The translations under genes and the position numbers were made by a program. A stretch of DNA of 12,219 nucleotides. Origin: a virus. Lineage: Duplodnaviria > Heunggongvirae > Uroviricota > Caudoviricetes. Of this stretch, positions 1 to 12,219 are shown one piece after another. The stretch's first letter is position 1. Each line of letters opens with the position of its first letter. The stretch is taken from IMG/VR virus record IMGVR_UViG_2545824708_000010, positions 1 through 12,219 of that record; one strand, 5' to 3'. The notes under the pieces are model-generated. The model saw only the letters and a program-made list of their open reading frames with translations. It was not told the origin of the DNA and did not search any database.

Positions 1-250
1 GCTCAGCGGCTTTTTCCACCCACGGCCTGATATTGCTGTACGGTGGGTTATTCCAGATTGCACCGTGGCTTACCCACTCAGAATTGAGCGCGTCGTCGGC
101 CTCAGTTAGCCAGTGAGCACACAGAGCATTTTTGTCGCTCGCTGCCGAATCCAGCCAGAATCCAAACTCAATATCCAGTGCATCAAAAAGCCAAAGCGGC
201 GTTTGCCAGCAGTCCTTGTCGTGTGCCGGCGTATTTGATTTGATAGTCAT
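1..250 (-). CDS. Phage Dam-like N6-adenine DNA methyltransferase, 5' part only (gene continues past the window's left edge)
   Basis: Minus-strand translation from ATG at 250..248 gives MTIKSNTPAHDKDCWQTPLWLFDALD...AIWNNPPYSNIRPWVEKAAE with an NPPY motif typical of N6-adenine methyltransferases. Start overlaps the NinB stop (ATGA). Not in the ORF track because no stop lies in the window. Confidence 0.65.
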   Translation of the reverse strand, partial: MTIKSNTPAHDKDCWQTPLWLFDALDIEFGFWLDSAASDKNALCAHWLTEADDALNSEWVSHGAIWNNPPYSNIRPWVEKAAE

Positions 251-693
251 GCAGCCTTCCCTTTTCGTTGTGACCATTCATACTCTCGCCGGGAGTCATC
301 ACTCCACCGCACGTTGCGCTCTGAGCCGAACCAGAACATGATTTCGATAAGCTCAGTCATGCTGGCCTTTCGCATTTTGCTGGTACGCACGCCAAGCATG
401 ACAACGCCACCGTCGATACCAGGAACACTTCGTTGCTCCAGTTTTTTGGTCTTAAGCCACAGGGCAGTGAACAGGTCTTTCCAGTCTTCCGGTGCCAGCC
501 GTTGACCATGCCATAGCACCTGACGCGAAACATCGTTCAGCATCGGCCACATACGGTCATTCTGCGCTTTGCTGCGTTTGGGTTCTTTAAGGTGGACTTC
601 GTGGGGTGACTTGTCGTCGATGGGAAGTGAGAGTATTGCGTCTATGGCGTTATTTCTGATTGCTTCGTTGCGAAGCATGTATATTTGCTTCAT
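247..693 (-). CDS. ninB: NinB-like recombination protein (nin region)
   Basis: 148 aa ORF. The segment LNDVSRQVLWHGQRL...WKDLFTA...RWSDDSRREYEWSQRKGKAA resembles my recollection of lambda NinB (DVSRQVEWHGRWL...KWSDEARLALEW...RAA). Position downstream of the replication genes fits. Confidence 0.8.
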   Translation of the reverse strand: MKQIYMLRNEAIRNNAIDAILSLPIDDKSPHEVHLKEPKRSKAQNDRMWPMLNDVSRQVLWHGQRLAPEDWKDLFTALWLKTKKLEQRSVPGIDGGVVMLGVRTSKMRKASMTELIEIMFWFGSERNVRWSDDSRREYEWSQRKGKAA

Positions 694-979
694 CGAAATT
701 CTTCTCTTTAATTCCAGCGGATCTGATAGCTTTCATTACTGCAATTACCGTTTTGTCTCTCCCATCCTCATAACCCATCGCATAAGCACCTTCTTCACCA
801 TCTTTCCAAAAGTCGTCATTCGATTCGGGCCAGTCGATATCCAGTTCAATAGCTGCTCGCGATGCCTGCCATGCCTCCCATGCAATCTCGACCTTGATGT
901 GCATAATCTTCATCACGTCACTTGAAACGTGATATTTGTTTTTAAACCATTCTTCAAACTGCTTTCTTGATTCGTCCAT
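650..979 (-). CDS. Hypothetical nin-region protein (109 aa, acidic)
   Basis: ORF-track ORF with a GAGGG ribosome-binding site about 9 nt upstream of the ATG at 979. Overlaps the ninB start by about 44 nt. No motif recognised. Confidence 0.55.
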   Translation of the reverse strand: MDESRKQFEEWFKNKYHVSSDVMKIMHIKVEIAWEAWQASRAAIELDIDWPESNDDFWKDGEEGAYAMGYEDGRDKTVIAVMKAIRSAGIKEKNFDEANIHASQRSNQK

Positions 980-996
980 CGATACTTACCCTCAGT

Positions 997-1203
997 TCAA
1001 CTCACAAAACGCCACGCCATTTTTGCTACGACAACAGGCATAACACCGATAATCACCCAGACAAATGCAGCGCCAAACAACGTATACCATGGGTCTTTAC
1101 CGTCATTCACAAGACGAATGTAGCTATTCAGAACAATAAAAAACGTCAGAAGAATCCATCCAACGCCAACGCATTTGAATGCGACGAGCATAAACTCAGC
1201 CAC
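997..1203 (-). CDS. Small hydrophobic membrane protein (68 aa, about 2 TM segments), probable GTG start
   Basis: ORF-track ORF. The codon at 1203..1201 is GTG, preceded by GGGGGGAGAG at about 7 nt. Two hydrophobic stretches (WILLTFFIVL and FGAAFVWVIIGVMPVVVA). First ATG is at 1191. Confidence 0.45.
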   Translation of the reverse strand: MAEFMLVAFKCVGVGWILLTFFIVLNSYIRLVNDGKDPWYTLFGAAFVWVIIGVMPVVVAKMAWRFVS

Positions 1204-1216
1204 GATTTACTCTCCC

Positions 1217-1251
1217 CCCAAATAAAAAGGCCTGCGATTACCAGCAGGCCT
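1217..1251 (-). terminator. Intrinsic terminator between helicase and nin genes (tR2-like position)
   Basis: Perfect 8-bp stem AGGCCTGC/GCAGGCCT (1228-1235 and 1244-1251) with an 8-nt loop. On the minus strand it is followed by TTTTTATTT. Confidence 0.6.
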
Positions 1252-1279
1252 GTTATTAGCTCAGTGATGTAGATGGTCA

Positions 1280-2716
1280 TCAGAATCCTCCTTTCTTCTT
1301 GGACTGCGGTTCCTCGCGTTCACGGCGGCGCATTTCAGCAGACTGTTGGTCTGTGTCATAAATAGCGCCATTTGCCTGAATGCAATACACCGTGCCGGTA
1401 TTGCCATGACGATTGAGGCGAAGGATTAGTTCGGTTTCACCAGGAGGAACGCTGTCATCAAAAGCGCCTTCACGATGGATCCCCACCCAATAATCGCAAT
1501 CCTGTTCAATCTGCCCTGTATCTCGTGAGTCACTTGGTAATGGGCGTTTATTGGTTCGGCTTTCCAGTGCGCGGTTAAGCTGTGTCAGAAGCACAACAAC
1601 GCAATCAAGCTCTTTGGCAAGGTTCTTCAGTCCTTTGGTGATCATGCCGTAAGCAAGGTCGTTGCGATCGGCCTTCTCAGCGGTCATTAGTGTCAGGTAA
1701 TCGACCAGAATCATGCCAACACATCCTTTTTCTCGCTTGATTCGACGGCTTTCGCTGACGATTTGAGCCAGAGATAATCCCGGCGTGTCGTCGATGTAAA
1801 GCAGGTCGATTTCACTCAAGCGATTGGCTGTTTCGATCGCCCTGTTGAAGTCACCATCGTAATCACCCTGATAGCCGTCATCAGCGTCATTTGTCGCCAG
1901 AAGGTAAAAAATATTGGGGTTAACACCTGACTTTTGCCCTACCAGTTTTTCCAGTATCTGGTCACCTGGCATTTCAAGGCTGAACATCAGAGCGGGCTTT
2001 TTCTCATGCACTGCGCAGTTGATTGCCATCTGGCTGTATAGCGTCGTTTTCCCCATCTTAGGGCGAGCGCCAATGACAAACAAAGAGCCTTTCACCAGAC
2101 CTTTCGGTGACAGCATCCTGTCCAGCGATGGGATCCCTGTGCTCATTCCTCGTTGTTCGCCTGACGGGTCAAATCGCTTCTCAAGGTCGCTAACCCAGTC
2201 TTCCATGACCTCACCAAATGAGCGAAGGCCGCGACGCGATCCGGTTTTTGCATGGTCTGTCAGTTGCGTGAAAATCGCCTGAATAGCTTCGTACTTCTGC
2301 GTTGCAGTCATTCCGTTGCGGGAATAGAGCAATTCCGTCGCTTCAGTCATGCGGTTGATGGCGTAGCGTTCCATTGCGGTTTCACGAACCTGCATTGCAT
2401 AGGCAACGATGTTTGCTGCGCTTGGCGTGTTCTTTGCGATCTCAGCGATATAAGCAAAACCGCCAACAGACTCCGTTAACGATTTACGCTCCAGTTCATC
2501 GAAAAGCGTCAGGCCATCTACTGGCTTTTGCTCCCGGTGCATTATGGTTATTTCTTCGAAAAGGATTTTGTGTGGCCGGCTGTAAAATGAATCAGGCTTC
2601 AGCATCGCCAGAACTTTCTGGACGCGCTCACTGCTGTCATCATCCAGAAGCAATCCACCAATCACCGCCTGCTCTGCCTCGATGCTATGGGGCGGCGCAT
2701 AAAAATTATCGGTCAT
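1280..2716 (-). CDS. DnaB-family replicative DNA helicase (P22 gene 12-type)
   Basis: Walker A VIGARPKMGKTT, N-terminal DnaB-like HSIEAEQAVIGGLLLD, and a RecA-like core. The ORF-track start at 2731 is a GTG; the ATG at 2716 (MTDNF) has a GAGGG ribosome-binding site. Confidence 0.9.
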   Translation of the reverse strand: MTDNFYAPPHSIEAEQAVIGGLLLDDDSSERVQKVLAMLKPDSFYSRPHKILFEEITIMHREQKPVDGLTLFDELERKSLTESVGGFAYIAEIAKNTPSAANIVAYAMQVRETAMERYAINRMTEATELLYSRNGMTATQKYEAIQAIFTQLTDHAKTGSRRGLRSFGEVMEDWVSDLEKRFDPSGEQRGMSTGIPSLDRMLSPKGLVKGSLFVIGARPKMGKTTLYSQMAINCAVHEKKPALMFSLEMPGDQILEKLVGQKSGVNPNIFYLLATNDADDGYQGDYDGDFNRAIETANRLSEIDLLYIDDTPGLSLAQIVSESRRIKREKGCVGMILVDYLTLMTAEKADRNDLAYGMITKGLKNLAKELDCVVVLLTQLNRALESRTNKRPLPSDSRDTGQIEQDCDYWVGIHREGAFDDSVPPGETELILRLNRHGNTGTVYCIQANGAIYDTDQQSAEMRRREREEPQSKKKGGF

Positions 2717-3605
2717 CGTGTTCACCCTCACGAACTTTCAGGTAGGTATTATCGTTAAGCAGGAAATCAAATCCCTTTTTGTGCCAGACGGTTCCGCGTT
2801 GATGGTTTGGGCGCTCTTCGAACATCCATCGGCAATTTTCGCCTACGTAGCTCAAATAATTTCTCCAGTCCTGCATCGTGAACCCATGCCCGTCAAGCTG
2901 GCGGGGTATCACTCCGGCTTTGCGCCAGAACGTTCGGATCTGGTTTTTACGCTTGTCATTCAGTGCGCGGATTCTTGGCGCTTCAGGAAGGATTTCGTGG
3001 TAAGCATCGACAACATCCTGACAGCTAACGGAAGGTTTTTTCTTGTCAGACTTTTTGTCTGCTGCGGTACTCTCTAATACGTCAGTATTAGAGATAATAT
3101 TATTATATTCTTTATCTGTGGTAATTTGCTGGTAATCTGCTGGTACAGTATTGCTTGCAGGCATTGGTATTGCTGGCTTTGAGGTGGTAATTTGCTGGTA
3201 ATCTGCTGGTACAAAATTTGACTGATAATCGTCATATTTCTCTACCGAGAAAACTGAGAATTTACCGTGTGAAACCCAGTCAATCATGCCGAGTTTTTTG
3301 AACTTTCTAAGCAGGTACTGAACGCGATCTGGTTTGAGTCCTGTTTCAAACGCCAGAGAGTTTCTACCGCCAAGTAGCTTCCCTCTGCCTACCAGAATTT
3401 CTCCTGCGTCAGTCATTACATACTCAGGCGTATGCTTTGCTTTGAGGATTAAGTGAACCCACAGATGCGCAGCTTCTGCGTCCTTGTAAAACGGCACATC
3501 CATAATTTTACGGTGCAGCAAGGCATACCCCTTACCGCTGCTTTGATGCGGTTGTTGTAGCCTTCTGGCCTCTCTGGCTTCGGCTAGATTAGATATGTTA
3601 CTCAT
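2706..3605 (-). CDS. O-like replication initiator protein (origin-binding; P22 gene 18-type)
   Basis: 299 aa ORF directly upstream of the helicase with an AGGAG ribosome-binding site. Contains the iteron DNA repeats, which produce the duplicated peptide [10 protein letters not shown]; placement of ori inside the initiator gene is the lambda O/P22 18 arrangement. Confidence 0.8.
3074..3213. repeat. Replication origin: iterons plus adjacent AT-rich region inside the O-like gene
   Basis: Two near-identical roughly 30-bp blocks (3118-3148 and 3183-3213), each holding two GTAATNTGCTG units (3121-3131, 3132-3142, 3188-3198, 3199-3209). Flanked at 3085-3115 by an AT-rich stretch and a 7-bp inverted repeat CTAATAC/GTATTAG at about 3074-3091. 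Confidence 0.75.
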
Positions 3606-3744
3606 GACCTTTCTCCTTCTGCATCAGCTTCACTTTTTCCAACTCAGCCCGGAATCGACCAGGCTGCTTGAAGCTGGACAGGAAGCGATCACGTAGTATG
3701 TGTTTGTGAATTTTGTCCTGGTAAGGACTGAGTTGTTTTGTCAT
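3598..3744 (-). CDS. Hypothetical small protein (48 aa) between cII and the O-like gene
   Basis: Minus-strand ATG at 3744 preceded by AGGAG. Translates [48 protein letters not shown] and its stop overlaps the O start. Below the ORF-track size cutoff, found by hand. Confidence 0.35.
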
Positions 3745-3778
3745 AATTACTCCTGTGGATTGATCCAGTCTTTCTACA

Positions 3779-4057
3779 TCAGGCCTCGAAGAATTTGCCG
3801 TTCTTCGGGGCTTTTTCTTTTGTCAGCATTCTGGCTACTTTCTTAGCCAGTTCCGCCAACTCCTCGTCTTCAACACCCCATTCAAGAACAGCCAGAAGCA
3901 TTCCCATTTTTGGGATGAAGCTGTCTTTCCATCGCGAAATTTGCGATTCATTAATTCCTAACGCGTCAGCAACCTTTCGCTGGCCACGTACAGCAATTCG
4001 ATTCAGGATGTTGCTTGTAATTGCATTCGCTTTCTTGCGAGTACTTGTAAGTTGCAT
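3779..4057 (-). CDS. cII: CII transcriptional activator
   Basis: 92 aa. The segment [42 protein letters not shown] matches my recollection of lambda CII ([42 protein letters not shown]). The RBS/start context TTAAGGAAATACTTACATATG also matches recalled lambda. Confidence 0.9.
3784..3821 (+). terminator. Plus-strand intrinsic terminator inside the 3' end of cII (oop-like antisense RNA terminator)
   Basis: Stem CCTCGAAGAA/TTCTTCGGGG (3784-3793 and 3801-3810, one G-U pair), 7-nt loop, then CTTTTTCTTTT. It is antisense to the cII C-terminal codons, as for lambda oop RNA. Confidence 0.5.
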
Positions 4058-4066
4058 ATGTAAGTA
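4035..4066 (+). promoter_or_regulatory. pRE-like CII-dependent promoter (TTGC-N6-TTGT box plus -10 region)
   Basis: TTGC (4035-4038), 6 nt, TTGT (4045-4048), then 12 nt, then TAAGTA (4061-4066). This is the same spacing as recalled for lambda pRE. A perfect TTGC-N6-TTGC also lies at 4011-4024. Direction is toward cI. Confidence 0.5.
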
Positions 4067-4116
4067 TTTCCTTAACTAATAAGAAGTTATGCGCATCAAC
4101 TTATGCGCGTTGTATT

Positions 4117-4160
4117 CCCGCATTTCGGCGGGAATGAGGACCATGACTGTTAAAGAGCGG
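4117..4160 (-). promoter_or_regulatory. nutR (boxA plus boxB) between cro and cII
   Basis: On the minus strand: boxA CGCTCTTTAACA (plus 4149-4160), then a boxB hairpin UCCCGC-CGAAAU-GCGGGA (plus 4117-4132). The same boxA/boxB recurs on the plus strand downstream of PL. Confidence 0.6.
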
Positions 4161-4165
4161 TGTTA

Positions 4166-4360
4166 CTATTTGTTTTTCTTGTTGCTTGGGAAAGGACGAA
4201 CTTCCTCTCCAATCACACTGCCATCAGGCTTTACCGTAACCATGATGTTACGGCCTGCCAGAATGGCCTTGCTGATAGCGCACTGGATTACACCAAAGTC
4301 ACTGGCTGCTTTAGCCTGTCCATGGATTTTGGCGTAATCGGCAAGTGTCATTCGAATCAT
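4166..4360 (-). CDS. cro: Cro repressor
   Basis: The segment [62 protein letters not shown] closely matches recalled lambda Cro ([59 protein letters not shown]). The ATG at 4360 has a GGAG ribosome-binding site; the ORF-track start at 4366 is a GTG. Confidence 0.9.
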
Positions 4361-4385
4361 ATGCACTCTCCGTTATTAACCATGA

Positions 4386-4466
4386 ACAAAGAATACTACA
4401 GGTATTCAAAGCAATCAATACTCAGGGTATTTTTAGTTTAAGTACCTTAGCTATTAGAATTAAGCT
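4386..4466. promoter_or_regulatory. OR operator region with divergent PR (toward cro) and PRM (toward cI)
   Basis: Two palindromic operators: GAATAC-TACAG-GTATTC (4391-4407) and AATAC-TCAGG-GTATT (4418-4432), with a possible degenerate third near 4437-4454. PR candidate on the minus strand: -35 TTGATT (plus 4413-4418), 17 bp, -10 TATTCT (plus 4390-4395). PRM candidate -10 TAGAAT (4455-4460) ends 6 nt before the cI ATG, implying a leaderless cI mRNA as in lambda. Confidence 0.65.
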
Positions 4467-5183
4467 ATGGAAAATAAAAAATCACTGACGACAGAACAGC
4501 TGGAAGACGCTAAGCGGCTTAAGGCTTTGTATGAGTCAAAAAAGAAAGAATTGGGAATAACCCAATACTCAATCGCTGATGAACTGGGTATCACCCAAGG
4601 AGCGGTAGGGCATTATCTTAATGGCAGAAATGCGCTAAACGTTGAGGTTGCATCTGGTTTTGCACGATTGTTGCAAGTCTCAATTGCTGATTTTAGCCAG
4701 TCAATTGCTGCCAAGGTTGCAGAACAGGCAGAAAGCCTTAAGAGCGATGCCAACGTAAGGTATGCAGGGGAATACAGAGCAGGAAAGAGGTATCCGGTGT
4801 TAAGCAGTATCCAGGCTGGCTCGTGGTGTGAAGCATGCGAACCATACACCATTAAAGACATAGATGTTTGGCTTGAGTCTGACGCGCATATTCAAGGTAA
4901 TGCGTTCTGGCTTAAAGTGGAAGGTGATTCAATGACGGCACCGGTTGGGTTAAGCATTCCAGAGGGAACATTCGTTCTTTTCGATACCGGAAGGGAGGCG
5001 ATCAACGGCAGCTTGGTCATAGCAAAACTTTCTGACTCTAACGAAGCAACATTCAAGAAGCTGATAATCGACGGCGGAAATAAATACCTCAAGGGACTTA
5101 ATCCTGCATGGCCTCTCGTGCCAATCAATGGAAACTGCAAGATTATAGGCGTTGCAATTGAGACAAAACTAAGGCTGGTTTGA
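4467..5183 (+). CDS. cI: CI-type prophage repressor (HTH DNA-binding domain plus S24 LexA-like autopeptidase domain)
   Basis: N-terminus LTTEQLEDAKRLKALYESKKKELGITQYSIADELGITQGAVGHYLNG resembles lambda CI. The C-terminal domain has Ala-Gly (YAGEY), the GDSM serine and the FKKL lysine, and resembles the recalled P22 C2 C-terminus (FWL.V.GDSMTAP.GLSIPEG...NEATFKKL...NGNCKIIGV). Confidence 0.93.
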   Translation: MENKKSLTTEQLEDAKRLKALYESKKKELGITQYSIADELGITQGAVGHYLNGRNALNVEVASGFARLLQVSIADFSQSIAAKVAEQAESLKSDANVRYAGEYRAGKRYPVLSSIQAGSWCEACEPYTIKDIDVWLESDAHIQGNAFWLKVEGDSMTAPVGLSIPEGTFVLFDTGREAINGSLVIAKLSDSNEATFKKLIIDGGNKYLKGLNPAWPLVPINGNCKIIGVAIETKLRLV

Positions 5184-5200
5184 TCACGCAAGGGGCGATT

Positions 5201-5569
5201 ATGGTTGGAACCGCTATAGCAAGCTTTTTTGGGATGTTGGCAATCTCGACAATTTACGGCTTAGCGCATGCTTTTATTGCGAAATCTCTATCAGAAAAAA
5301 TAAGCCAGGCTTGGGCGCATAGATCAGCTCGTTTCATGATTCTAGTGATCATAGCAATACAAGGGATATCTGCATTTATCCTCTATGGTTCAAGCTTATA
5401 CCTGTTGTATCAAGGCGCGACATTTACGCCTTACACCAGTGATTACGGAACTCTATACGATGGTAGTGAAGACATCTCTATGGCTTGGATTGTCTTTGGT
5501 TTATCTATGGCCGTGTCTGTTGTAGCAGATATCATTAAGGTAATTCTCGTCTTAACCTTCGCTGACTAA
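5201..5569 (+). CDS. Small multi-pass membrane protein cotranscribed with cI (rex/sie position)
   Basis: ATG at 5201 with an AGGGG ribosome-binding site, 18 bp after the cI stop. 122 aa with 3-4 hydrophobic segments (AIASFFGMLAISTIYGLAHAFIA, FMILVIIAIQGISAFILYG, MAWIVFGLSMAVSVVADIIKVILVLTF). The ORF-track start at 5180 is a TTG overlapping the cI stop. Confidence 0.6.
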   Translation: MVGTAIASFFGMLAISTIYGLAHAFIAKSLSEKISQAWAHRSARFMILVIIAIQGISAFILYGSSLYLLYQGATFTPYTSDYGTLYDGSEDISMAWIVFGLSMAVSVVADIIKVILVLTFAD

Positions 5570-5655
5570 CCTATAATCCCGGCAGCAATAGCTATCGGGA
5601 TCCACTTCACATATCCCGCATAAAAAGCACTGAACAAGCAGACACCGAAAAAATA

Positions 5656-5745
5656 AATATCCTTTGTATTCATTTGCTTATCATTATTTCATCAAAAATA
5701 AATACCTTGGGTATTTACACAATAAAATACCTACAGTATTCTTTA
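5656..5745 (+). promoter_or_regulatory. OL operators and PL promoter
   Basis: Operators with the same half-sites as OR: AATAC-CTTGG-GTATT (5701-5715), AATAC-CTACA-GTATT (5727-5741), and a degenerate AATAT-CCTTT-GTATT (about 5657-5671). PL candidate: -35 TTTACA (5714-5719), 17 bp, -10 TATTCT (5737-5742). Confidence 0.65.
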
Positions 5746-5788
5746 GCCATCAGCAGGACGCTGGAAGCCAAACGGAACAGATTGGCAG

Positions 5789-5828
5789 GCTCTTTAACAT
5801 TGATGGGATTGTCCCGCCGAAATGCGGG
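5789..5828 (+). promoter_or_regulatory. nutL (boxA plus boxB)
   Basis: GCTCTTTAACA (5789-5799), 13 nt, then CCCGCCGAAATGCGGG (5813-5828). This is the same boxA/boxB RNA sequence as the nutR site on the opposite strand, about 45 nt downstream of the PL -10. Confidence 0.65.
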
Positions 5829-6273
5829 AACTGAGTTTAACCAAACAGGAGGTGCCGTAATGGTGCACTAACGCGGTTAGACCGCAGCCGAAAGGAAATG
5901 CAGCAGTAATGATGCTGCCCTGAGTCGCCATTGAGCGAGCCTGCTTAGCATCGGGTTAGGGTCAATATATTAAAAGTAGCTCCGGTAAAGCAGCGCGAAT
6001 GCCAGACGCGCACCGGTTATCAGCGGCGATGAAGCGGCAGAGACTCAAGGGCATGAGCGCGCTCACTGCGAGAGTGTGAGTCAAAGAGTAGTTGGCTTTG
6101 GGATTGGATGAATGAGCAGGCTGATGCTCGACCAATGTATAAACAGCGCTCATGGCAAGCAGTAACCAATCTGCGCCTCAAGACAGCGTCACTGGTAGTG
6201 CGGGCGCTCTAACCAGTAAGCCGGAATTCAGCACCGGCCATCCAATCACCAAAGTCAATCATCGGAGGTCAAC

Positions 6274-6546
6274 ATGACAGTAGTCATTACATATCTGGCT
6301 GACGATAACGCCAGAAATCGCCGCAGAGCACGCAGACAGGCTCAACGTGAACAGGCAATGCAAGAACAGCGACTGGCGCGAAAAATTGCGCTAAAGCTCT
6401 CTGGTTGCGTCAGAGCAGACAAAGCAGCATCACTCGGAAGCCTTCGCTGCAAGAAGGCAGATGAATGCAGTGGAAGTATTTGCCTGCCAAACGTAGCCAT
6501 TTACGCGGCAGGCTACCGGAAATCAAAACAACTGACGGCGAGGTAA
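6274..6546 (+). CDS. N: N-like transcription antitermination protein
   Basis: 90 aa. First gene downstream of PL/nutL, with a GGAGG ribosome-binding site. N-terminal arginine-rich motif NARNRRRARRQAQREQA, as in lambdoid N proteins. Confidence 0.75.
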   Translation: MTVVITYLADDNARNRRRARRQAQREQAMQEQRLARKIALKLSGCVRADKAASLGSLRCKKADECSGSICLPNVAIYAAGYRKSKQLTAR

Positions 6547-6548
6547 TT

Positions 6549-6941
6549 ATGGGTCAGGAAGAAAAATATGAGCTTAAAAAGCTCATTGAAGAAGACGCCA
6601 TAGAAGAAATTGCAGCATTAACAACAGCTATAAATAATATTAGGTATGCGCTAAATACGCTTATCTCCTCATGCGACAAAAATAGCAGGGAATTTTTGAT
6701 ACTTGGCGCAGCTCTAGGAATAGTTGATGCGGCAACGCTTCACCTAATTACTCATGACGATATTCTTATTGAGCCGTATGAAACATTACTGCTTGTCAGG
6801 CAAAAAATGGCTGATGCCGCAGCAAATGGAGACCTTCAACTTTACATCGACTTAAGGAAAGTATTAAGGCGAATGGTCAGAACTGAAGGAGATATCCCAC
6901 TGAGCGATGCTAAACAAGGCATACAAGCAAAGCTGGAATGA
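6549..6941 (+). CDS. Hypothetical protein (130 aa) in the early-left operon
   Basis: ATG at 6549 with a GAGG ribosome-binding site, starting 3 nt after the N stop. The ORF-track start at 6465 would overlap N. No motif recognised. Confidence 0.6.
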   Translation: MGQEEKYELKKLIEEDAIEEIAALTTAINNIRYALNTLISSCDKNSREFLILGAALGIVDAATLHLITHDDILIEPYETLLLVRQKMADAAANGDLQLYIDLRKVLRRMVRTEGDIPLSDAKQGIQAKLE

Positions 6942-7001
6942 CCATTATCCTGATGAAGTATCGAAAGCACAGTCAGCAATTAGCAAAGCTCTTGGGGAAG
7001 A

Positions 7002-7163
7002 ATGATGAATAAGAAATACATTGTTGAAGTTATAGAGCGAGAAACGAAAGAAGTAATCAAACATTTCGAATTTGATAATTATAGAAAACCTGACCGCGTA
7101 GAAGAAGGATTGTTGCGACAAAGTAATCTCGAAAAATTTGATGTTGTCATGCGATGCGAATAA
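7002..7163 (+). CDS. Hypothetical small protein (53 aa)
   Basis: ATG at 7002 preceded by GGGGAAG. Translates MMNKKYIVEVIERETKEVIKHFEFDNYRKPDRVEEGLLRQSNLEKFDVVMRCE. Below the ORF-track cutoff. Confidence 0.4.
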   Translation: MMNKKYIVEVIERETKEVIKHFEFDNYRKPDRVEEGLLRQSNLEKFDVVMRCE

Positions 7164-7256
7164 GCGCCTATAGCAGATTTACGAGTCTGCTATGTGAGCA
7201 ATGTCGCTCGTAACTAAACAGGAGCCGACTTGTTCTGATTATTGGAAATCTTCTTT

Positions 7257-7281
7257 GCCCTCCAGTGTGAGGGCCTTTTTA
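7257..7281 (+). terminator. Intrinsic terminator (tL-like) in the early-left operon
   Basis: Stem GCCCTC/GAGGGC (7257-7262 and 7269-7274), 6-nt loop, followed by CTTTTTAT. Confidence 0.55.
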
Positions 7282-7346
7282 TATGCATACCAATAACGCT
7301 TCACTCGAGGCGTTTTCGTTATGCAATCAAACAGAAGGAGCATCCT

Positions 7347-7517
7347 ATGCAACAGTTCGCTATTGCAGGGGCGGCATCGGTTCGCCCTTTCAACCCGATT
7401 TTATCGGTACAGCATTCACGAAAAAATATTTTAACCGGAGCAGACTTTAAACAACCAAGAATGAAAAGCTTGCTCGAAAAGCTTTGGGATATTTTGAAAC
7501 AACAAGGCCGTCCATGA
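7347..7517 (+). CDS. cIII: CIII-like small protein (56 aa; candidate FtsH inhibitor that stabilises CII)
   Basis: Strong AAGGAG ribosome-binding site 6 nt upstream. N-terminus MQQFAIAGAA and SLLEKLWDILKQQGRP resemble recalled lambda CIII (MQYAIAGWPVAG...SLLERITRKLRDGWKRLIDILNQPG). Position after N fits. The ORF-track start at 7242 is judged to be upstream read-through. Confidence 0.5.
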   Translation: MQQFAIAGAASVRPFNPILSVQHSRKNILTGADFKQPRMKSLLEKLWDILKQQGRP

Positions 7518-7543
7518 GTTTTACCAATAAGGGGAGCAAGTAA

Positions 7544-8635
7544 ATGGCTATTCAGACTAAAACATTGCAGGTACGCGTCAAAGACCGCCACGCCGCCTTG
7601 TTGCGTCAGATGGCCTTTGAAGTGAACCAAGTTTTTAACTTTATCAATGAAATGACTGCGACTGAATACAGCACTGTCAGCGAATACGGACCAAAACAAA
7701 GAGTTTGGTTAACTGAATTTGACGTAGATAAACGCATTGCTGGTATTCAAAAGGAGCGCGGATACCACATACAAGCAGCTACTTGTCAGGAAATCTCAAA
7801 ACATCACGCTAAAGCGCGTAAACAGTTTAAACGCAGTAAGCTGCGCTGGCGTAAAAGTGGCGGTGCTGGGCGTAGTCTTGGTTGGGTTCCGTTCAAAGGT
7901 GCTCAAGTGAAATGGGTAAACGGCTGCATCAAGTTTGCCGGGCACTATTTCAAAGTGTGGGATAGCTATGGATTAAATGGCTTTAAATTCCGTGCTGGTA
8001 ACTTTGCAGAAGATGCGCGCGGTCGCTGGTATTTCAATGTTGCAGTTGAATACGAATGCGAACCAACTAAAGGCACTGCCGACGTGGGTATCGATCTTGG
8101 TCTGAAAGACATTGCCACCACTTCGGATGGTGAAAAACTTCCTGCTAAACGTTGGTATCGTGAATTAGAAGGCAAATTAAAAATTGCTCAACGTGCCCAT
8201 AATAAAAAACGTGTTAGAGCTATCCACGCAAAAATCAAAAATCGCCGTAAAGATGCACACCATAAGTTTTCTACGGCGCTGGTTAATAAATACGCCGCTA
8301 TTTTTGTAGGCGACGTAAGCAGTAAAAAGTTATCAAAAACAAATTTGGCAAAAAGTATCTACGACGCCGGCTGGTGTCAGCTAAAAAATCAGATTCAGTA
8401 TAAAGCGATTGCGCGGAGTGTGGTTTTTGAGGTCGTAGATGAAGCGTACACCACCCAGACTTGCTCGTGCTGCGGAGCTATTAGCTGCAGTAGTCCGAAG
8501 GGTAGGGTAGGCCTTGGAATAAGAGAATGGATCTGCGTGGAATGTGGTGAACTCCACGACCGCGACGTAAACGCGGCAAAGAACATTCTCGCGGCGGGAC
8601 ATCGCCGTCTCGAAGGAGGAATCCACGCCCTTTAG
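7544..8635 (+). CDS. tnpB: TnpB-family protein (IS200/IS605 OrfB-type RNA-guided nuclease fold)
   Basis: 363 aa with a GGGGAG ribosome-binding site. RuvC-I VGIDLGLKDIATTSDG; an acidic residue in IFVGDVSS at the RuvC-II position; C4 zinc finger CSCCG...CVECG; RuvC-III HDRDVNAAKNI. Confidence 0.9.
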   Translation: MAIQTKTLQVRVKDRHAALLRQMAFEVNQVFNFINEMTATEYSTVSEYGPKQRVWLTEFDVDKRIAGIQKERGYHIQAATCQEISKHHAKARKQFKRSKLRWRKSGGAGRSLGWVPFKGAQVKWVNGCIKFAGHYFKVWDSYGLNGFKFRAGNFAEDARGRWYFNVAVEYECEPTKGTADVGIDLGLKDIATTSDGEKLPAKRWYRELEGKLKIAQRAHNKKRVRAIHAKIKNRRKDAHHKFSTALVNKYAAIFVGDVSSKKLSKTNLAKSIYDAGWCQLKNQIQYKAIARSVVFEVVDEAYTTQTCSCCGAISCSSPKGRVGLGIREWICVECGELHDRDVNAAKNILAAGHRRLEGGIHAL

Positions 8636-8643
8636 GGCGTGGA
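8622..8643 (+). other. Perfect hairpin at the tnpB stop codon (candidate right-end or guide-RNA scaffold element)
   Basis: TCCACGCCC-TTTA-GGGCGTGGA, a 9-bp perfect stem around a 4-nt loop that contains the TAG stop. Confidence 0.5.
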
Positions 8644-8901
8644 GGATGTCAAAGATAACTGGTCAGACAAAGAATTCATTCGTCAGATGAAAGAATTAAT
8701 CGGTAACGAAGGAGATATGCATGTCACTTGCAACCACAGTGAAGGAGAGCAAGTTACAGAGACGCATGTACACGCAGAAAGCTCTCTGGTATCGCCATAA
8801 TGGCGACCGCGAAGGAATGCGGGTATGCCTTAATTTGTCCCGAGTCGAAGTATTAAATCAGCGTTATTTCCTTGGGCCATGTCCATTCTGAGAACAATCA
8901 T

Positions 8902-9507
8902 ATGAGCAAAGAATTTTACGCAAGACTGGCAGCTATTCAGGAGAATCTGAACGCGCCAAAGAATCAGTACAACTCATTCGGCAAATATAAATACAGAAGC
9001 TGCGAAGACATTCTTGAAGGCGTTAAGCCGTTACTGAATGGCCTGTTTTTATCAATCAGCGATGAAGTTGTGCTGATTGGTGATCGGTATTACGTGAAAG
9101 CCACGGCAACTATTACCGATGGCGAAAACAGCCATACGGCAACCGCTCTTGCACGAGAGGAAGAAAGCAAGAAAGGAATGGATTCTGCACAAGTTACGGG
9201 AGCTACAAGCTCTTATGCACGCAAGTATTGCCTCAATGGTTTGTTCGGCATTGATGATGCGAAAGATGCAGATACCGACGAGCATAAACATCAGCAGAAC
9301 GCAGCAGCAAAGCAATCAAAACCATCACCTACACCTGAACAGGTTCTAAAAGCATTCACTGACGCAGCATTGCAGAAAAACACCGTAGAAGAGCTTAAAC
9401 AGGCGTTCGCCAAAGCGTGGAAGATGCTCGAAGGCACACCGGAGCAGCACAAAGCACAGGACGTTTACAACATCAGACGAGACGAATTAGAAGGAGCGGC
9501 TGCTTAA
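8902..9507 (+). CDS. erf: Erf-family single-strand annealing recombinase (P22 Erf-like)
   Basis: From the first ATG: MSKEFYARLAAIQENLNAPKNQYNSFGKYKYRSCEDILEG..., which matches my recollection of P22 Erf. Its stop overlaps the ssb start (TAATG). The ORF-track start at 8872 is a TTG. Confidence 0.8.
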   Translation: MSKEFYARLAAIQENLNAPKNQYNSFGKYKYRSCEDILEGVKPLLNGLFLSISDEVVLIGDRYYVKATATITDGENSHTATALAREEESKKGMDSAQVTGATSSYARKYCLNGLFGIDDAKDADTDEHKHQQNAAAKQSKPSPTPEQVLKAFTDAALQKNTVEELKQAFAKAWKMLEGTPEQHKAQDVYNIRRDELEGAAA

Positions 9508-9890
9508 TGGCACATTCGATTACTGTAAGACTAAACAAGCCCGCAAGAGAGTTTCAGGCCGGGGAAAATATCGGATTCAACATCCGTGCTGGCGTTCAGT
9601 ATTACGATCGCCAGACAAAAAAGAAAGAATGGACAAACTACAGCGCCGTTGTATTTGCCAAGCCGGGAGCGCAAGCGGATTACTACCGTAGTGTTCTTGT
9701 TGAAGGTGGCATTGTGGAAATTACCGGAGAAAACATCAGGGTTGATGTTTATCAGGGGCAAAATGGTCAATCAATCACTCTTGAATTACTGAATGCAAAG
9801 ATTGGATTTGCAACTTCAGGAAACAGCCAACAGCAGCAAAGTAGCAATCATCAAAATCATCCTGAATACGACGATTCAATTCCCTTCTAG
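9507..9890 (+). CDS. ssb: Single-stranded DNA-binding protein (short phage SSB)
   Basis: 127 aa. Predicted OB-fold N-terminus, a Q/S/N-rich linker and a C-terminal acidic tail DDSIPF (E. coli SSB ends DDDIPF). Translationally coupled to erf. Confidence 0.8.
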   Translation: MAHSITVRLNKPAREFQAGENIGFNIRAGVQYYDRQTKKKEWTNYSAVVFAKPGAQADYYRSVLVEGGIVEITGENIRVDVYQGQNGQSITLELLNAKIGFATSGNSQQQQSSNHQNHPEYDDSIPF

Positions 9891-9913
9891 ATTAGCAAAA
9901 TAAGGATTCCATT

Positions 9914-10207
9914 ATGCCAGCGCCTCTGTATGGTGCGGATGACCCGCGCCGCTGTTCCGGCAATTCCGTATCGGAGGTGCTGGATAAATTCAGAAAAAAC
10001 TACGATCGAATAATGTCTCTACCGCAGGAAACGAAAGAGGAAAAGGAGTTTCGCCACTGCATATGGCTTGCAGAGAAAGAAGAACGAGAGCGAATTTACC
10101 AGACATCAATCCGACCATTCCGCAAAGCCACATATACCCACTTCCCTGAAATCGACCCGCGCCTGCGTAATTACCGCTCACGCTATGGCGCTATCAGTAA
10201 TGACTGA
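9914..10207 (+). CDS. abc2: Abc2-like protein (candidate anti-RecBCD function)
   Basis: 97 aa with an AAGGA ribosome-binding site. Size and position immediately after erf/ssb match P22 abc2. The sequence identity is from uncertain recollection. Confidence 0.5.
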   Translation: MPAPLYGADDPRRCSGNSVSEVLDKFRKNYDRIMSLPQETKEEKEFRHCIWLAEKEERERIYQTSIRPFRKATYTHFPEIDPRLRNYRSRYGAISND

Positions 10208-10217
10208 GGAATTAACA

Positions 10218-10508
10218 ATGAAAACAATGAAGCTAAACATCGACCTCGGAAAATACGTTATTACCGGAACAAAACACGATCTGATTCTTAGCGAAAGAGG
10301 AATTATCAAAGAAGGCGAGAATGCAGGGAAAGAAACACTAAGCCGTATCGGTTATTACAGCAAGTTTGAGCATCTGGTTAAAGAGTTATGCAACCGTGAA
10401 ATCCTGTTATCTCAGGCGCAGACGCTACAGGATATTCAGCAGCATATCGAGACTTTAGGTGTGTCACTTAGCATGGCTATTGACCAGTTCGTGGAGAGTA
10501 AATCATGA
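10218..10508 (+). CDS. Hypothetical protein (96 aa) at the abc1 position
   Basis: ATG at 10218 with a GAGG ribosome-binding site 8 nt upstream. The ORF-track start at 10068 would overlap abc2. Confidence 0.5.
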   Translation: MKTMKLNIDLGKYVITGTKHDLILSERGIIKEGENAGKETLSRIGYYSKFEHLVKELCNREILLSQAQTLQDIQQHIETLGVSLSMAIDQFVESKS

Positions 10509-10666
10509 GAGGTCTTGCATACAATCCCGGCATTCTTCCGGCAGAAATGATTATTCGCCAACGCGTATAAGCCAATGCCATCGAGAGAGGAATTGCTTAA
10601 GAGAAATTCTTTTCCATCAGTGAATCAAAACAAATATCTGAATGCGATGTGGCGGAGTGGGAAGAA

Positions 10667-11110
10667 ATGAAACAAATGTCACTAATTGAGATGGATGGAT
10701 TTCTGAAAGGTAAATGCATCCCAAGTGATTTAAAGGTTAACGAAACAAACGCTGAATATCTGGTGCGTAAGTTCGGTGAACTTGAATCAAAACTAGAAAC
10801 AGCGTTGCGTGAGTGTCGTTCTGCTGGAATCACGATTGATAACCTTGAGGCCAAGTGCGCGGCGCTGGCTGTGGAGAATGCGGGGATGAAAGAATATCTA
10901 GCTCCAGTAGGGTTAGTGGTAGAGGGAACCCCAGCCACCGACGCCTTCCTGGCTGAAGTGCGGGCGCAGGGTGTGGAGATGGCTCGTAACGCGATGATTG
11001 ATTTTGTTGATGGTGAAGTTGGGCCAAACAAGAACGTTCCGGGGCTGATTAGAGGCGCAGAGATATGCGTAAGTATTGCTGCCCAGCTTCGCAAAGGAGG
11101 CAACCAATGA
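10667..11110 (+). CDS. Hypothetical protein (147 aa)
   Basis: ATG at 10667 with a GGAG ribosome-binding site. The ORF-track start at 10649 is a GTG. Stop overlaps the next gene's start. Confidence 0.55.
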
Positions 11111-11388
11111 GCGTAATCCAGTACGTAGTTAGAGATGCAGGCACGTTTCCTGAGGATGCGTTTTTTCTCGATCCTCGACACATCGATGAGCTCATTTCTG
11201 AGTGGGAATTGGAATGCTTGTCTCAGGATGCCTCCCTTGATTATTTTGACAATCATGACGGCTTGGAATCTGACTGGCCGTTGGATATCGAGCTATTCAT
11301 TGACGGTGAGAGCGTAGGTGTATTCACGGTTGAAATGGAACATGTACCTCAATTCAGCGCAAGAAAAATACCGGAGGCCGCCCAATGA
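11107..11388 (+). CDS. Hypothetical acidic protein (93 aa)
   Basis: ATG at 11107 with an AGGAGG ribosome-binding site. ATGA overlap with the following gene. Confidence 0.55.
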   Translation: MSVIQYVVRDAGTFPEDAFFLDPRHIDELISEWELECLSQDASLDYFDNHDGLESDWPLDIELFIDGESVGVFTVEMEHVPQFSARKIPEAAQ

Positions 11389-11915
11389 GCAACATCGACA
11401 AACGCGCATTACGTCATAGCGCAGAAAGCATAATCGGCATTCTGGAAAACATTGCCGGGTTCGAACCATCTGATATCGACGGCGACTCTGTAGAGCTCCG
11501 CTTTGAAACTGAGGACGGTTTCGATACTGGTTGTGACGTTAGCATTGTTGACCAGTGCCAGAAAACCGCTGATGTAGTTCGGGCGCTGCTGGATGAGCTG
11601 GAAAGAAACCAGCAATACATCAAACGCCGCGATCAGGAGAACGAGGATATTGCGCTAACGGTAGGGAAGCTGCGCGTTGAGCTTGAAGCAGCAAAATCAA
11701 AACTCAACGAGCAGCGTGAATATTACGAGGGAGTAATCGCGGATGGAAGTAAGCGCATAGCAGAACTGGAGGAGCGGGAAATACTGCTCCCGGAACGTAG
11801 CAGCATGCTTCATCGAACAGATTTTCACGAGGATTACCAAACGGTAATGGCATACAAAGTTTCTGAAGTCATCGATGCAATCCGCGCTACTGGCATTCGC
11901 ATCAAAGGAGAGTGA
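11385..11915 (+). CDS. Hypothetical protein (176 aa) with probable coiled-coil segment
   Basis: ORF-track ORF, translationally coupled to the preceding gene. Central heptad-like stretch ELERNQQYIKRRDQENEDIALTVGKLRVELEAAKSKLNEQREYYEG. Confidence 0.6.
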   Translation: MSNIDKRALRHSAESIIGILENIAGFEPSDIDGDSVELRFETEDGFDTGCDVSIVDQCQKTADVVRALLDELERNQQYIKRRDQENEDIALTVGKLRVELEAAKSKLNEQREYYEGVIADGSKRIAELEEREILLPERSSMLHRTDFHEDYQTVMAYKVSEVIDAIRATGIRIKGE

Positions 11916-11916
11916 T

Positions 11917-12219
11917 ATGAGCGCTATAACCAAAGAACGTGTCGAATTATTCATTAAAAATCCGCTTGATAACGGACTTACCCGTGGCGAACAAATGGAA
12001 CTGGCACGAATTGCACTGGCATCGCTGGAAGCAGATCCAGTTAAACGAGTTAACTCAGATCAGATGCGCCGAGTCTGCTTAGAAGCTAATCGCCATTTAG
12101 ATAAATATGACGCGATGGCGAAAGAGGTAAATAAGTTGCTTGGACGCATCGCCCCGCCAGCGCCGGTAGTGCCGGAAGAAGCAACTCCGGAAAACGTAGA
12201 AATGCTCTCTGGCTATGTT
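11917..12219 (+). CDS. Hypothetical protein, 5' part only (runs off the right edge of the window)
   Basis: ATG at 11917 with an AAAGGAGAG ribosome-binding site, 2 nt after the previous stop. Open for 101 codons to the window end. Not in the ORF track because it lacks a stop. Confidence 0.5.
   Translation, partial: MSAITKERVELFIKNPLDNGLTRGEQMELARIALASLEADPVKRVNSDQMRRVCLEANRHLDKYDAMAKEVNKLLGRIAPPAPVVPEEATPENVEMLSGYV

Follow-up and report, generated by a model that had tools for sequence, protein, structure and literature searches.

A tnpB–omega-RNA cassette without a left end in the early left operon of lambdoid phages: an immobilised IS200/IS605 derivative and candidate RNA-guided homing element

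We have analysed a stretch of 12,219 nt from a virus of the Caudoviricetes (IMG/VR record IMGVR_UViG_2545824708_000010, positions 1 to 12,219; at its full length, "the window" below), whose open reading frames (ORFs) and Pfam matches identify it as part of a phage of the lambdoid HK97/HK542/P22 type, namely its early region. Between a cIII-like ORF and the recombinase gene erf it carries a 1128-bp element encoding a TnpB-family protein. This element is almost certainly a cassette of tnpB and an omega-RNA derived from the IS200/IS605 family of insertion sequences (ISs), with IS608-like ends, which came in by a canonical insertion, lost its left end and was wired into the early left (pL) operon. 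Our preferred reading, to which we assign a probability of about 60%, goes further: the immobilised derivative would be expressed from pL and spread among phages as an RNA-guided homing element. The features involved are listed below.

7514–7524, plus strand: first 11 nt (ATGAGTTTTAC) of a small phage ORF, from the empty-site comparison
7520–7524, plus strand: TTTAC (TTAC), the target-adjacent motif (TAM) 5' of the element
7525–8652, plus strand: inserted element, 1128 bp, tnpB-only, IS200/IS605-derived, without target duplication, from blastn of the flanks
7525–7543, plus strand: left-end remnant, 19 nt (CAATAAGGGGAGCAAGTAA), holding only the Shine-Dalgarno sequence GGGGAG (7531–7536), from alignment with LPSTLL and L008
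7544–8635, plus strand: tnpB, 363 aa, of the RuvC-II-rearranged type, from Pfam, phmmer against PDB and alignment
8523–8652, plus strand: omega-RNA scaffold core, from RNAalifold and pair counts on 35 family members
8622–8643, plus strand: right-end subterminal hairpin, doubling as the terminal stem of the omega-RNA (TCCACGCCCT-TT-AGGGCGTGGA), from an inverted-repeat search
8644–8652, plus strand: 9-nt linker GGATGTCAA, ending in TCAA at the right-end boundary set by the empty sites
8653–8668, plus strand: predicted guide, 16 nt (AGATAACTGGTCAGAC), directly outside the right end
8653–8800, plus strand: remainder of the small phage ORF, counterpart of HK542 gp31 and HK97 gp42

No record in the phage collection spans the whole of 7200–9300, the best matches being to the two flanks only. 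In HK542, vB_EcoP-720R6 and HK97 window positions 7200–7524 are joined directly to 8653–9300 in blastn comparisons, and therefore 7525–8652 is an insertion. With a slash marking each boundary, the left junction reads ...ATGAGTTTTAC/CAATAAGGGGAGCAAGTAAATG... and the right one ...TCCACGCCCTTTAGGGCGTGGAGGATGTCAA/AGATAACTGGTCAGAC...; the empty sites are TTTAC/AGATAACTGGTCAGAC in HK97 and TTTAC/AGATAACTGTTCAGAC in HK542, both within ...ATGAGTTTTAC/AGATAAC..., where the window has TTTAC/element/AGATAAC, that is, zero target duplication. The element splits codon 4 of a small conserved phage ORF, whose ATG overlaps the stop codon of the cIII-like ORF (ATGA) and which comes after cIII in HK542-type phages and after kil in HK97-type ones. 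A preliminary description of the window, made from its letters alone, had reported a TnpB-family ORF at 7544–8635, its ATG 26 nt after the cIII-like ORF (which ends at 7517), and some 265 bp (8636–8901) with no convincing ORF. The first two observations hold, and the comparison with phages lacking the gene, proposed there, fixed the boundaries at 7525–8652; the third has to be corrected, 8653–8800 being the remainder of the small ORF. Translation of this ORF could start anew at an in-frame GTG (8639) within the right end, with MEDVK in place of MSFT and nearly equal length, and its protein may therefore survive the insertion.

IS608-type members of the IS200/IS605 family insert 3' of TTAC, produce no target duplication and end on the right with a hairpin and a linker of about 10 nt to TCAA. 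The window element agrees with this scheme: it is inserted 3' of a specific pentanucleotide without duplication (TAMs of the family are TTAT, TTAC, TCAC and TGAC), ends in the canonical right end ...GGAGGATGTCAA, with the subterminal hairpin at 8622–8643 and the cleavage motif about 10 nt on (in GGATGTCAA), and carries the OrfB_IS605 accessory gene (Pfam PF01385, PF07282). Three attributes of the family are missing from it, namely a left end with a subterminal hairpin about 19 nt from the cleavage site, a Y1 TnpA in cis or in trans, and copies at several sites; no tnpA is present within the window.

The left end of relatives spans 110–270 nt, with a subterminal hairpin and a promoter, and the window element keeps 19 nt of it. 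The common plan is a TAM, a boundary followed by CA.., about 19 nt, the hairpin CCCCGTCC..GGCGGGG and another 100–250 nt to the ATG; in close relatives the stretch before the ATG holds a TTGAC-N17-TATAT promoter. Canonical left ends are present at loci L008 and L206, in the P0016 IS, in Thiofilum, Azomonas and in other chromosomal copies. Both hairpin and promoter are kept by L008, which is 87% identical to the window element, and by L206, and both are gone from the window element: pattern and inverted-repeat searches of 7300–7650, including the 5' coding part of tnpB, found no left-end-like hairpin, confirming the initial impression that there is no room for a left end, and none. The Y1 transposase of IS608 cannot excise an element that lacks the left-end hairpin. 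Given this mechanism and the loss of the hairpin, the window element can no longer be excised by a Y1 TnpA.

The left end of relatives starts AC/CAAT.. (TTGAC/CAATGAAGCC in L206), and a second ..GAC CAAT.. stands just 5' of the ribosome-binding site (ATAGACCAATGGGG in L196). In the window element the left end was probably removed by a deletion between such short ACCAAT-type repeats, which would give exactly the TTTAC/CAATAAGG junction. We also considered excision by TnpA of a left-end-less sub-element from an internal pseudo-site (..GAC/CAAT) and rejected it, as no hairpin follows this site and TnpA needs one. Two copies of the motif ATAGACCAAC flank the tnpB promoter (TTGAC-N17-TATAT) in relatives (L008, 2900–3000; L203, 2915–3000; L005, 3935–4014), and both left-end-less phage elements are cut off at or beside one of these copies. 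As to expression, tnpB retains only its own ribosome-binding site and would therefore be transcribed within the pL operon. No sigma-70-like promoter is found on the plus strand of 7300–7544 and two terminator-like hairpins lie at 7257–7314, which implies a need for N; hence tnpB probably depends on N-antiterminated transcription from pL.

The nuclease module appears complete, as judged from family-invariant residues, the RNA scaffold and the right end. The protein matches Pfam OrfB_IS605 (E=1e-12) and Cas12f1-like_TNB (E=3e-21) and, in a phmmer search of PDB, ISDra2 TnpB (E=9e-22). D184 and D341 align with D191 and D361 of ISDra2, and its canonical RuvC-II glutamate, E278, aligns with G256. 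In an alignment of the window protein with 118 homologues, G256 and E300, about 44 residues on, are each present in 119 of the 119 sequences and D341 in 118; D184 and the zinc finger C307/C310/C331/C334 are invariant or nearly so (C331 in 118 of 119). This residue pattern is the one described as RuvC-II rearrangement, where the canonical Glu is replaced (by Gly in RIIr-5) and a conserved alternative Glu lies downstream (Altae-Tran et al., 2023; PMC10691335), and it is in this rearranged sense only that the RuvC carboxylates of a TnpB are present together with the zinc finger. Loss of nuclease activity because of the glycine at the E278 position was considered and discarded: the glycine is found family-wide, including multicopy IS copies, and the alternative Glu is invariant. 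Compared with five phage-borne relatives, the ratio of nonsynonymous to synonymous substitution rates (dN/dS) is 0.05–0.08 over codons 1–290, and in the last 73 codons dS drops from 1.0–1.9 to 0.4–0.7, i.e., to about half or less, a drop that an overlapping RNA structure would lead one to expect.

Such a structure, running over the 3' end of tnpB to the right end as in other TnpB/OMEGA systems, has been identified by covariation and folding. In the 35 family 3' ends the consensus structure has 25 pairs, which are 98.6% paired over the alignment, compared to 40–56% with the partners slid; compensatory changes occur at nine pairs (75 cells), and the covariation score was reached in none of 500 shuffles. 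The single-sequence fold gives the same helices (z=-4.27), and all of them are intact in the window (8523–8529 with 8584–8590, 8591–8597 with 8602–8608, 8609–8611 with 8616–8618, and 8622–8629 with 8636–8643). A long-range pairing of 8451–8452 with 8644–8645 is possible in this model, and the scaffold may start near 8450, overlapping in all the last ~130–200 nt of tnpB. The terminal hairpin has two fully complementary 10-nt arms (8622–8631 and 8634–8643) separated by 2 nt, with the tnpB stop codon TAG (8633–8635) in its loop and 3' arm; it is the perfect palindrome over the stop codon noticed initially, where it was given as 9 bp. Compensatory variants of this hairpin are seen in LPSTLL, L008 and other relatives, and the GAGGATGTCAA end is near-invariant over about 50 family copies.

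A guide-RNA scaffold in this region had been anticipated, and a covariance-model or structure search suggested; the covarying structure bears out the first, and of the searches the Rfam one yielded sub-threshold matches only, namely HgcC (RF00062; score 26.9, gathering threshold 50) and sot0042 (RF02656; 17 and 88, respectively). By its score the RNA is not a member of HgcC. Both families are, as we take it, archaeal RNAs that overlap tnpB 3' ends; the terminal hairpin and GAGGAUGUCA tail of the window RNA align with them almost base for base, and the resemblance is limited to the 3' third. The overlap leaves traces in the protein: at 8591–8608 (alignment columns 179–196) RNA covariation forces coupled changes of the TnpB C-terminus, which reads L-A-A-G-H-R-R, L-A-L-G-H-E-R or L-A-V-G-H-G-R. 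Moreover, the last ~200–235 nt of tnpB are 75–80% DNA-identical to the window's in phages of distant hosts (Ralstonia phages Dimitile, Gamede and Heva, Bacillus phage Dartukuta, Acinetobacter phage HFM1 and Morganella phage IME1369_01), an identity that, to judge from the sequences, reflects conservation of the omega-RNA and the right end across phyla.

The predicted guide leads back to the insertion site. TTTAC followed by the 16-nt guide is identical to the uninterrupted HK97-type allele, and the 16-mer itself occurs once in the window. A search of phage and host genomes for guide plus TAM, recommended at the outset, found exact matches in at least 120 IMG/VR contigs and the 60-nt empty site in 1105 of 5426 complete Escherichia coli genomes; phages of the HK97, HK022 and HK542 types carry the target or a one-mismatch variant. 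As the guide equals the empty allele of related phages, its predicted target, in such phages and in prophages related to them, is the allele without the element, i.e., the allele of the same locus that a homing nuclease would be expected to cut, here by identity to a predicted guide. Of the targets considered initially, a competing phage is thus the likely one. In one carrier, L187 (GCA_013771725.1, AAUNNO010000002.1, from 4110 of the locus on), exactly the 16 nt after the right end (AGATAACTGGTCAGAC) are deleted and GTCAA is joined directly to GAAGAATTC without microhomology; this deletion could be a footprint of cleavage and repair or a disarmed guide.

The element is much rarer than its target. 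Of the 5426 complete E. coli genomes one, that of strain A2, has it, as a single copy of 99.6% identity at the same site, and no plasmid in PLSDB does. At this site the 1128 bp are present in E. coli A2 as well as at loci L006, L007 and L186–L195, and the identical protein is encoded on 22 contigs; in the ten places shown of these 22 the element lies between the cIII-like ORF, uncalled in two, and the recombinase gene. At least 12 lambdoid phages with differing immunity, N and recombinase modules carry it at this one site: their cI proteins are of five types (210, 216, 231, 237 or 238 aa), N is of the N36 or N_peptide type, and the recombinase is ERF or Rad52 with SSB. Ten copies have the same sequence throughout the 1128 bp; a single synonymous difference (at 7661) sets the window apart from these ten, and five positions distinguish the A2 copy from the window. 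At the same ten loci the 300 bp of immediate flank contain eight segregating sites, compared to none of the 1128 positions of the element (Fisher test, p=3.5e-6, a value that overstates the significance, since the carriers were not sampled independently). Twelve carriers show six left and eight right flank haplotypes in ten combinations; most of these haplotypes are also found as empty alleles, and one empty locus equals a carrier on both sides. The element is therefore uncoupled from the flank haplotypes, as is typical of homing endonuclease genes, and the sequences indicate that it is much younger than the surrounding diversity and that many older alleles have received it, by placement or by recombination. 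This pattern fits homing, and frequent ordinary recombination of a young allele could give it too.

The family as a whole has a wider distribution. About 50 gammaproteobacterial relatives share an almost invariant right end, GGAATCCCCGNCCTTTAGGGNGGGGAGGATGTCAA, among them those of Thiofilum flexile (at least six copies), Azomonas, Thiopseudomonas, Pantoea and Klebsiella spallanzanii. An autonomous cousin (L202–L205; 2464–4112 of the locus) is a complete 1649-bp IS with divergently transcribed Y1 tnpA (L203, 2513–2920) and tnpB, the latter encoding a protein 75% identical to the window TnpB; it occupies at least three lambdoid sites (after dnaB, between N and cIII, and elsewhere) behind the motifs TGAC, TCAC and TTAC. 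Given the multicopy relatives and this hopping cousin, the family overall is an ordinary IS family. The preliminary expectation that the element would not be a plain multicopy IS thus stands for the window element in E. coli, a single copy in one of 5426 genomes, and fails for the family, which has multicopy, canonical-end copies in other gammaproteobacteria and a tnpA–tnpB member moving among lambdoid phages. None of the 5426 complete E. coli genomes has the cousin; no TnpA partner is at hand there for the window element.

All close relatives (at least 82% amino-acid identity) are in phage contexts. The left-end hairpin, kept in L008 and L206, is missing also in LPSTLL and L196 and at L209, L211, L009/L010 and L012. 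The LPSTLL and L196 copies have diverged by about 7% together with their flanks, and therefore a copy without a left end can last long with an intact ORF. One may tentatively go on to suggest, although we hold it for somewhat doubtful, that left-end-less TnpB–omega-RNA cassettes form a recurrent, self-sustaining class of phage homing elements, which the loss of the left end frees from TnpA and which would spread by guide-directed cleavage and phage repair and perhaps serve as a weapon too; the window copy would then be a young and actively spreading member, and the LPSTLL/L196 copy an old one. IS200/IS605 elements normally produce no target duplication. The LPSTLL/L196 element, a resident of virulent siphoviruses, has on its two sides a 9-bp direct repeat AGAATTAAT (in Salmonella phage LPSTLL, L005, 3935–3948 and 5125–5133) that is single-copy in the empty site of L185 (VSt472, at about 895–915); its left copy stands where relatives have AGACCAACC.

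We propose the following course of events. An ancestor element reached a lambdoid phage by inserting canonically behind TTAC, in the small ORF that separates the cIII-like gene from erf, and would then have lost its left end with the subterminal hairpin, the promoter and any tnpA, becoming immobile for TnpA. TnpB and the omega-RNA would be produced from the N-antiterminated pL operon, and in the processed RNA the 16 nt outside the right end would act as a guide in combination with the TTTAC motif. In lytic growth or co-infection the TnpB–omega-RNA complex would cut element-free alleles, and a phage recombinase, the adjacent Erf or one of the Rad52 type, would repair the break with the occupied allele as the template, copying the element in. 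The product of erf, which lies directly downstream in the same operon as tnpB, is the likely repair partner. The outcome would be RNA-guided homing, with the same logic as in a phage homing-endonuclease gene; for this step taken separately, homing into element-free alleles, the sequence comparisons leave us at even odds.

The nearest known systems are non-autonomous, tnpB-only IS200/IS605 elements with IS608-type ends (the IS1341-like group, and OMEGA systems such as ISDra2 or the Geobacillus stearothermophilus ISGst elements). The window element shares with them the OrfB_IS605 and TNB domains, an omega-RNA over the 3' end of tnpB and the right end with its hairpin, linker of about 10 nt and TCAA, insertion 3' of a TTAC-type motif without duplication, and a guide that is the flank, with the empty donor site as the target. 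It differs in having neither left-end hairpin nor promoter and hence in not being mobilisable by TnpA, in being single-copy at one phage site with transcription that would depend on pL, and in the replacement of the RuvC-II Glu by Gly with the alternative Glu at 300. Recombinational reinstatement of IS elements has been demonstrated as TnpB-driven transposon retention, or "cut-and-copy" (Meers et al., 2023; PMC10055086), and the process proposed here resembles it in the predicted cleavage of an element-free allele followed by recombinational copying. The template there is the sister chromosome after excision by TnpA, whereas the window element has no possible excision and its targets would be other phage or prophage genomes, making the process lateral. 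With phage homing endonuclease genes (T4 seg and mob, and HNH genes at exchange boundaries; PMC10448857) it shares presence/absence polymorphism at a fixed site, an empty allele as the target, an age much below that of the flanks, and spread via phage recombination functions; the differences are its IS origin and a specificity that comes from an RNA guide, not from the protein. Finally, TldR and other exapted TnpB proteins (Wiegand et al., 10.1101/2023.11.30.569447; Altae-Tran et al., 2023, PMC10691335) are likewise prophage-borne and immobilised, with an adjacent guide RNA. TldR is nuclease-dead and retargeted to host promoters (10.1101/2023.11.30.569447), whereas the window protein keeps its catalytic residues and its own empty site as the target.

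Among the alternatives, the one to be taken most seriously, although we consider it unlikely, is that the element is an inert passenger, a decaying IS remnant that derives from one insertion and is moved by ordinary modular recombination only, with TnpB inactive or irrelevant. The lost left end and the rarity of the allele (one genome of 5426) would suit it, as would the mosaic breakpoints, which (at about -250/-350 and +250/+1250–1550) are ordinary module boundaries. What it leaves unexplained is that no copy has a broken 363-aa ORF or a disrupted RNA helix, and that purifying selection on the phage-borne clade is strong (dN/dS about 0.05), also in the left-end-less lineage that is ~7% diverged together with its flanks. 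Moreover, an element with none of 1128 sites variable, set in flanks polymorphic within 17–120 nt and shared with empty alleles, needs many exchanges very close to it in a short time. An improbable variant retains the nuclease and makes the cassette a domesticated weapon, kept for the competitive advantage of cutting element-free co-infecting phages or resident prophages (marker exclusion), with spread as a by-product. The guide site is indeed present in about 20% of E. coli genomes and many phages, expression would be tied to the lytic early operon, and intact left-end-less copies recur in several unrelated phage groups; the guide, however, is nothing but the flank that insertion created and shows no trace of having been retargeted, few genomes carry the allele, and no promoter that could serve in a lysogen was found. 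This variant is inseparable from selfish homing by sequence alone, and the "domesticated" locus of the preliminary description does not suit a rare allele whose guide is aimed at its own empty site, which is the configuration of a selfish IS.

The same description had favoured an ordinary operon gene in the place of kil. An ancestral or resident gene of this phage group, perhaps replacing kil and not an IS insertion, would account for the orientation along the operon, the start 26 nt after the cIII-like ORF and the absence of a left end, and has become very improbable: related phages are contiguous across the site, which refutes it, the junctions are the canonical TTAC/ and TCAA/, and a conserved ORF is split. 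That ORF follows cIII in HK542-type phages and kil in HK97-type ones, and replacement of kil is rejected, the former type having no kil here. Hardly credible at all is a TldR-like, nuclease-dead RNA-guided transcription regulator encoded by a prophage. Phage-encoded TnpB-derived regulators do exist in prophages of Enterobacteriaceae, but the window protein is full length, with neither catalytic loss nor C-terminal truncation, keeps all family-invariant catalytic residues and the zinc finger, and its guide matches its own empty site and no host promoter.

Several points weigh against RNA-guided homing of an immobilised element and keep its probability at the level given above. For all the abundance of the target, the occupied allele is rare, and an efficient drive might be expected to be commoner; constant recombination among lambdoid phages, perhaps with selection, could carry a young allele into several backgrounds without any nuclease, and the non-independence of the carriers weakens the contrast between element and flanks. 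No full-length copy was found at the window's site, the order of insertion and left-end deletion being read from the junction, and activity of RuvC-II-rearranged TnpBs is a prediction only (PMC10691335).

Literature searches found no report of TnpB-mediated homing from phage to phage. TnpB is the ancestor of Cas12. Its natural role demonstrated so far is to keep transposons from loss after excision (PMC10055086), and the role of phage-borne tnpB genes is still treated as an open question in recent papers. The window locus provides a natural case where mobility by transposase is structurally impossible, and yet a near-unchanged copy occurs at one site in many mosaic phages. If homing is indeed the cause, lateral spread would need no more than an RNA-guided nuclease, and the cassette would constitute an RNA-programmed homing-endonuclease gene, a step on the way from a selfish IS to an immobilised, exapted TnpB or Cas12, and a new force acting on exchange and competition among lambdoid and Stx-type phages.

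The remaining annotated genes of the window are as follows.

247–693, minus strand: ninB
1280–2731, minus strand: DnaB-like helicase
2706–3605, minus strand: replication protein
3779–4057, minus strand: cII
4166–4366, minus strand: cro
4467–5183, plus strand: cI
6274–6546, plus strand: N, Pfam N_peptide
7347–7517, plus strand: cIII-like ORF, 56 aa, whose HK542 counterpart is annotated CIII
8902–9507, plus strand: erf, single-strand annealing recombinase, Pfam ERF (E=2e-44)

From this layout, with cI, N, the cIII-like ORF, tnpB and erf all on the plus strand, it follows that the plus strand to the right of cI is the pL operon; the 56-aa cIII-like ORF has no Pfam match. Within the replication-protein gene we observe 30-nt direct repeats at 3118–3147 and 3184–3213, cross-matched in blastn against the E. 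coli A2 prophage, which are probably origin iterons. A hydrophobic ORF of 129 aa (5180–5569) comes directly after cI on the plus strand, where exclusion genes of the rex/sie type have their place.

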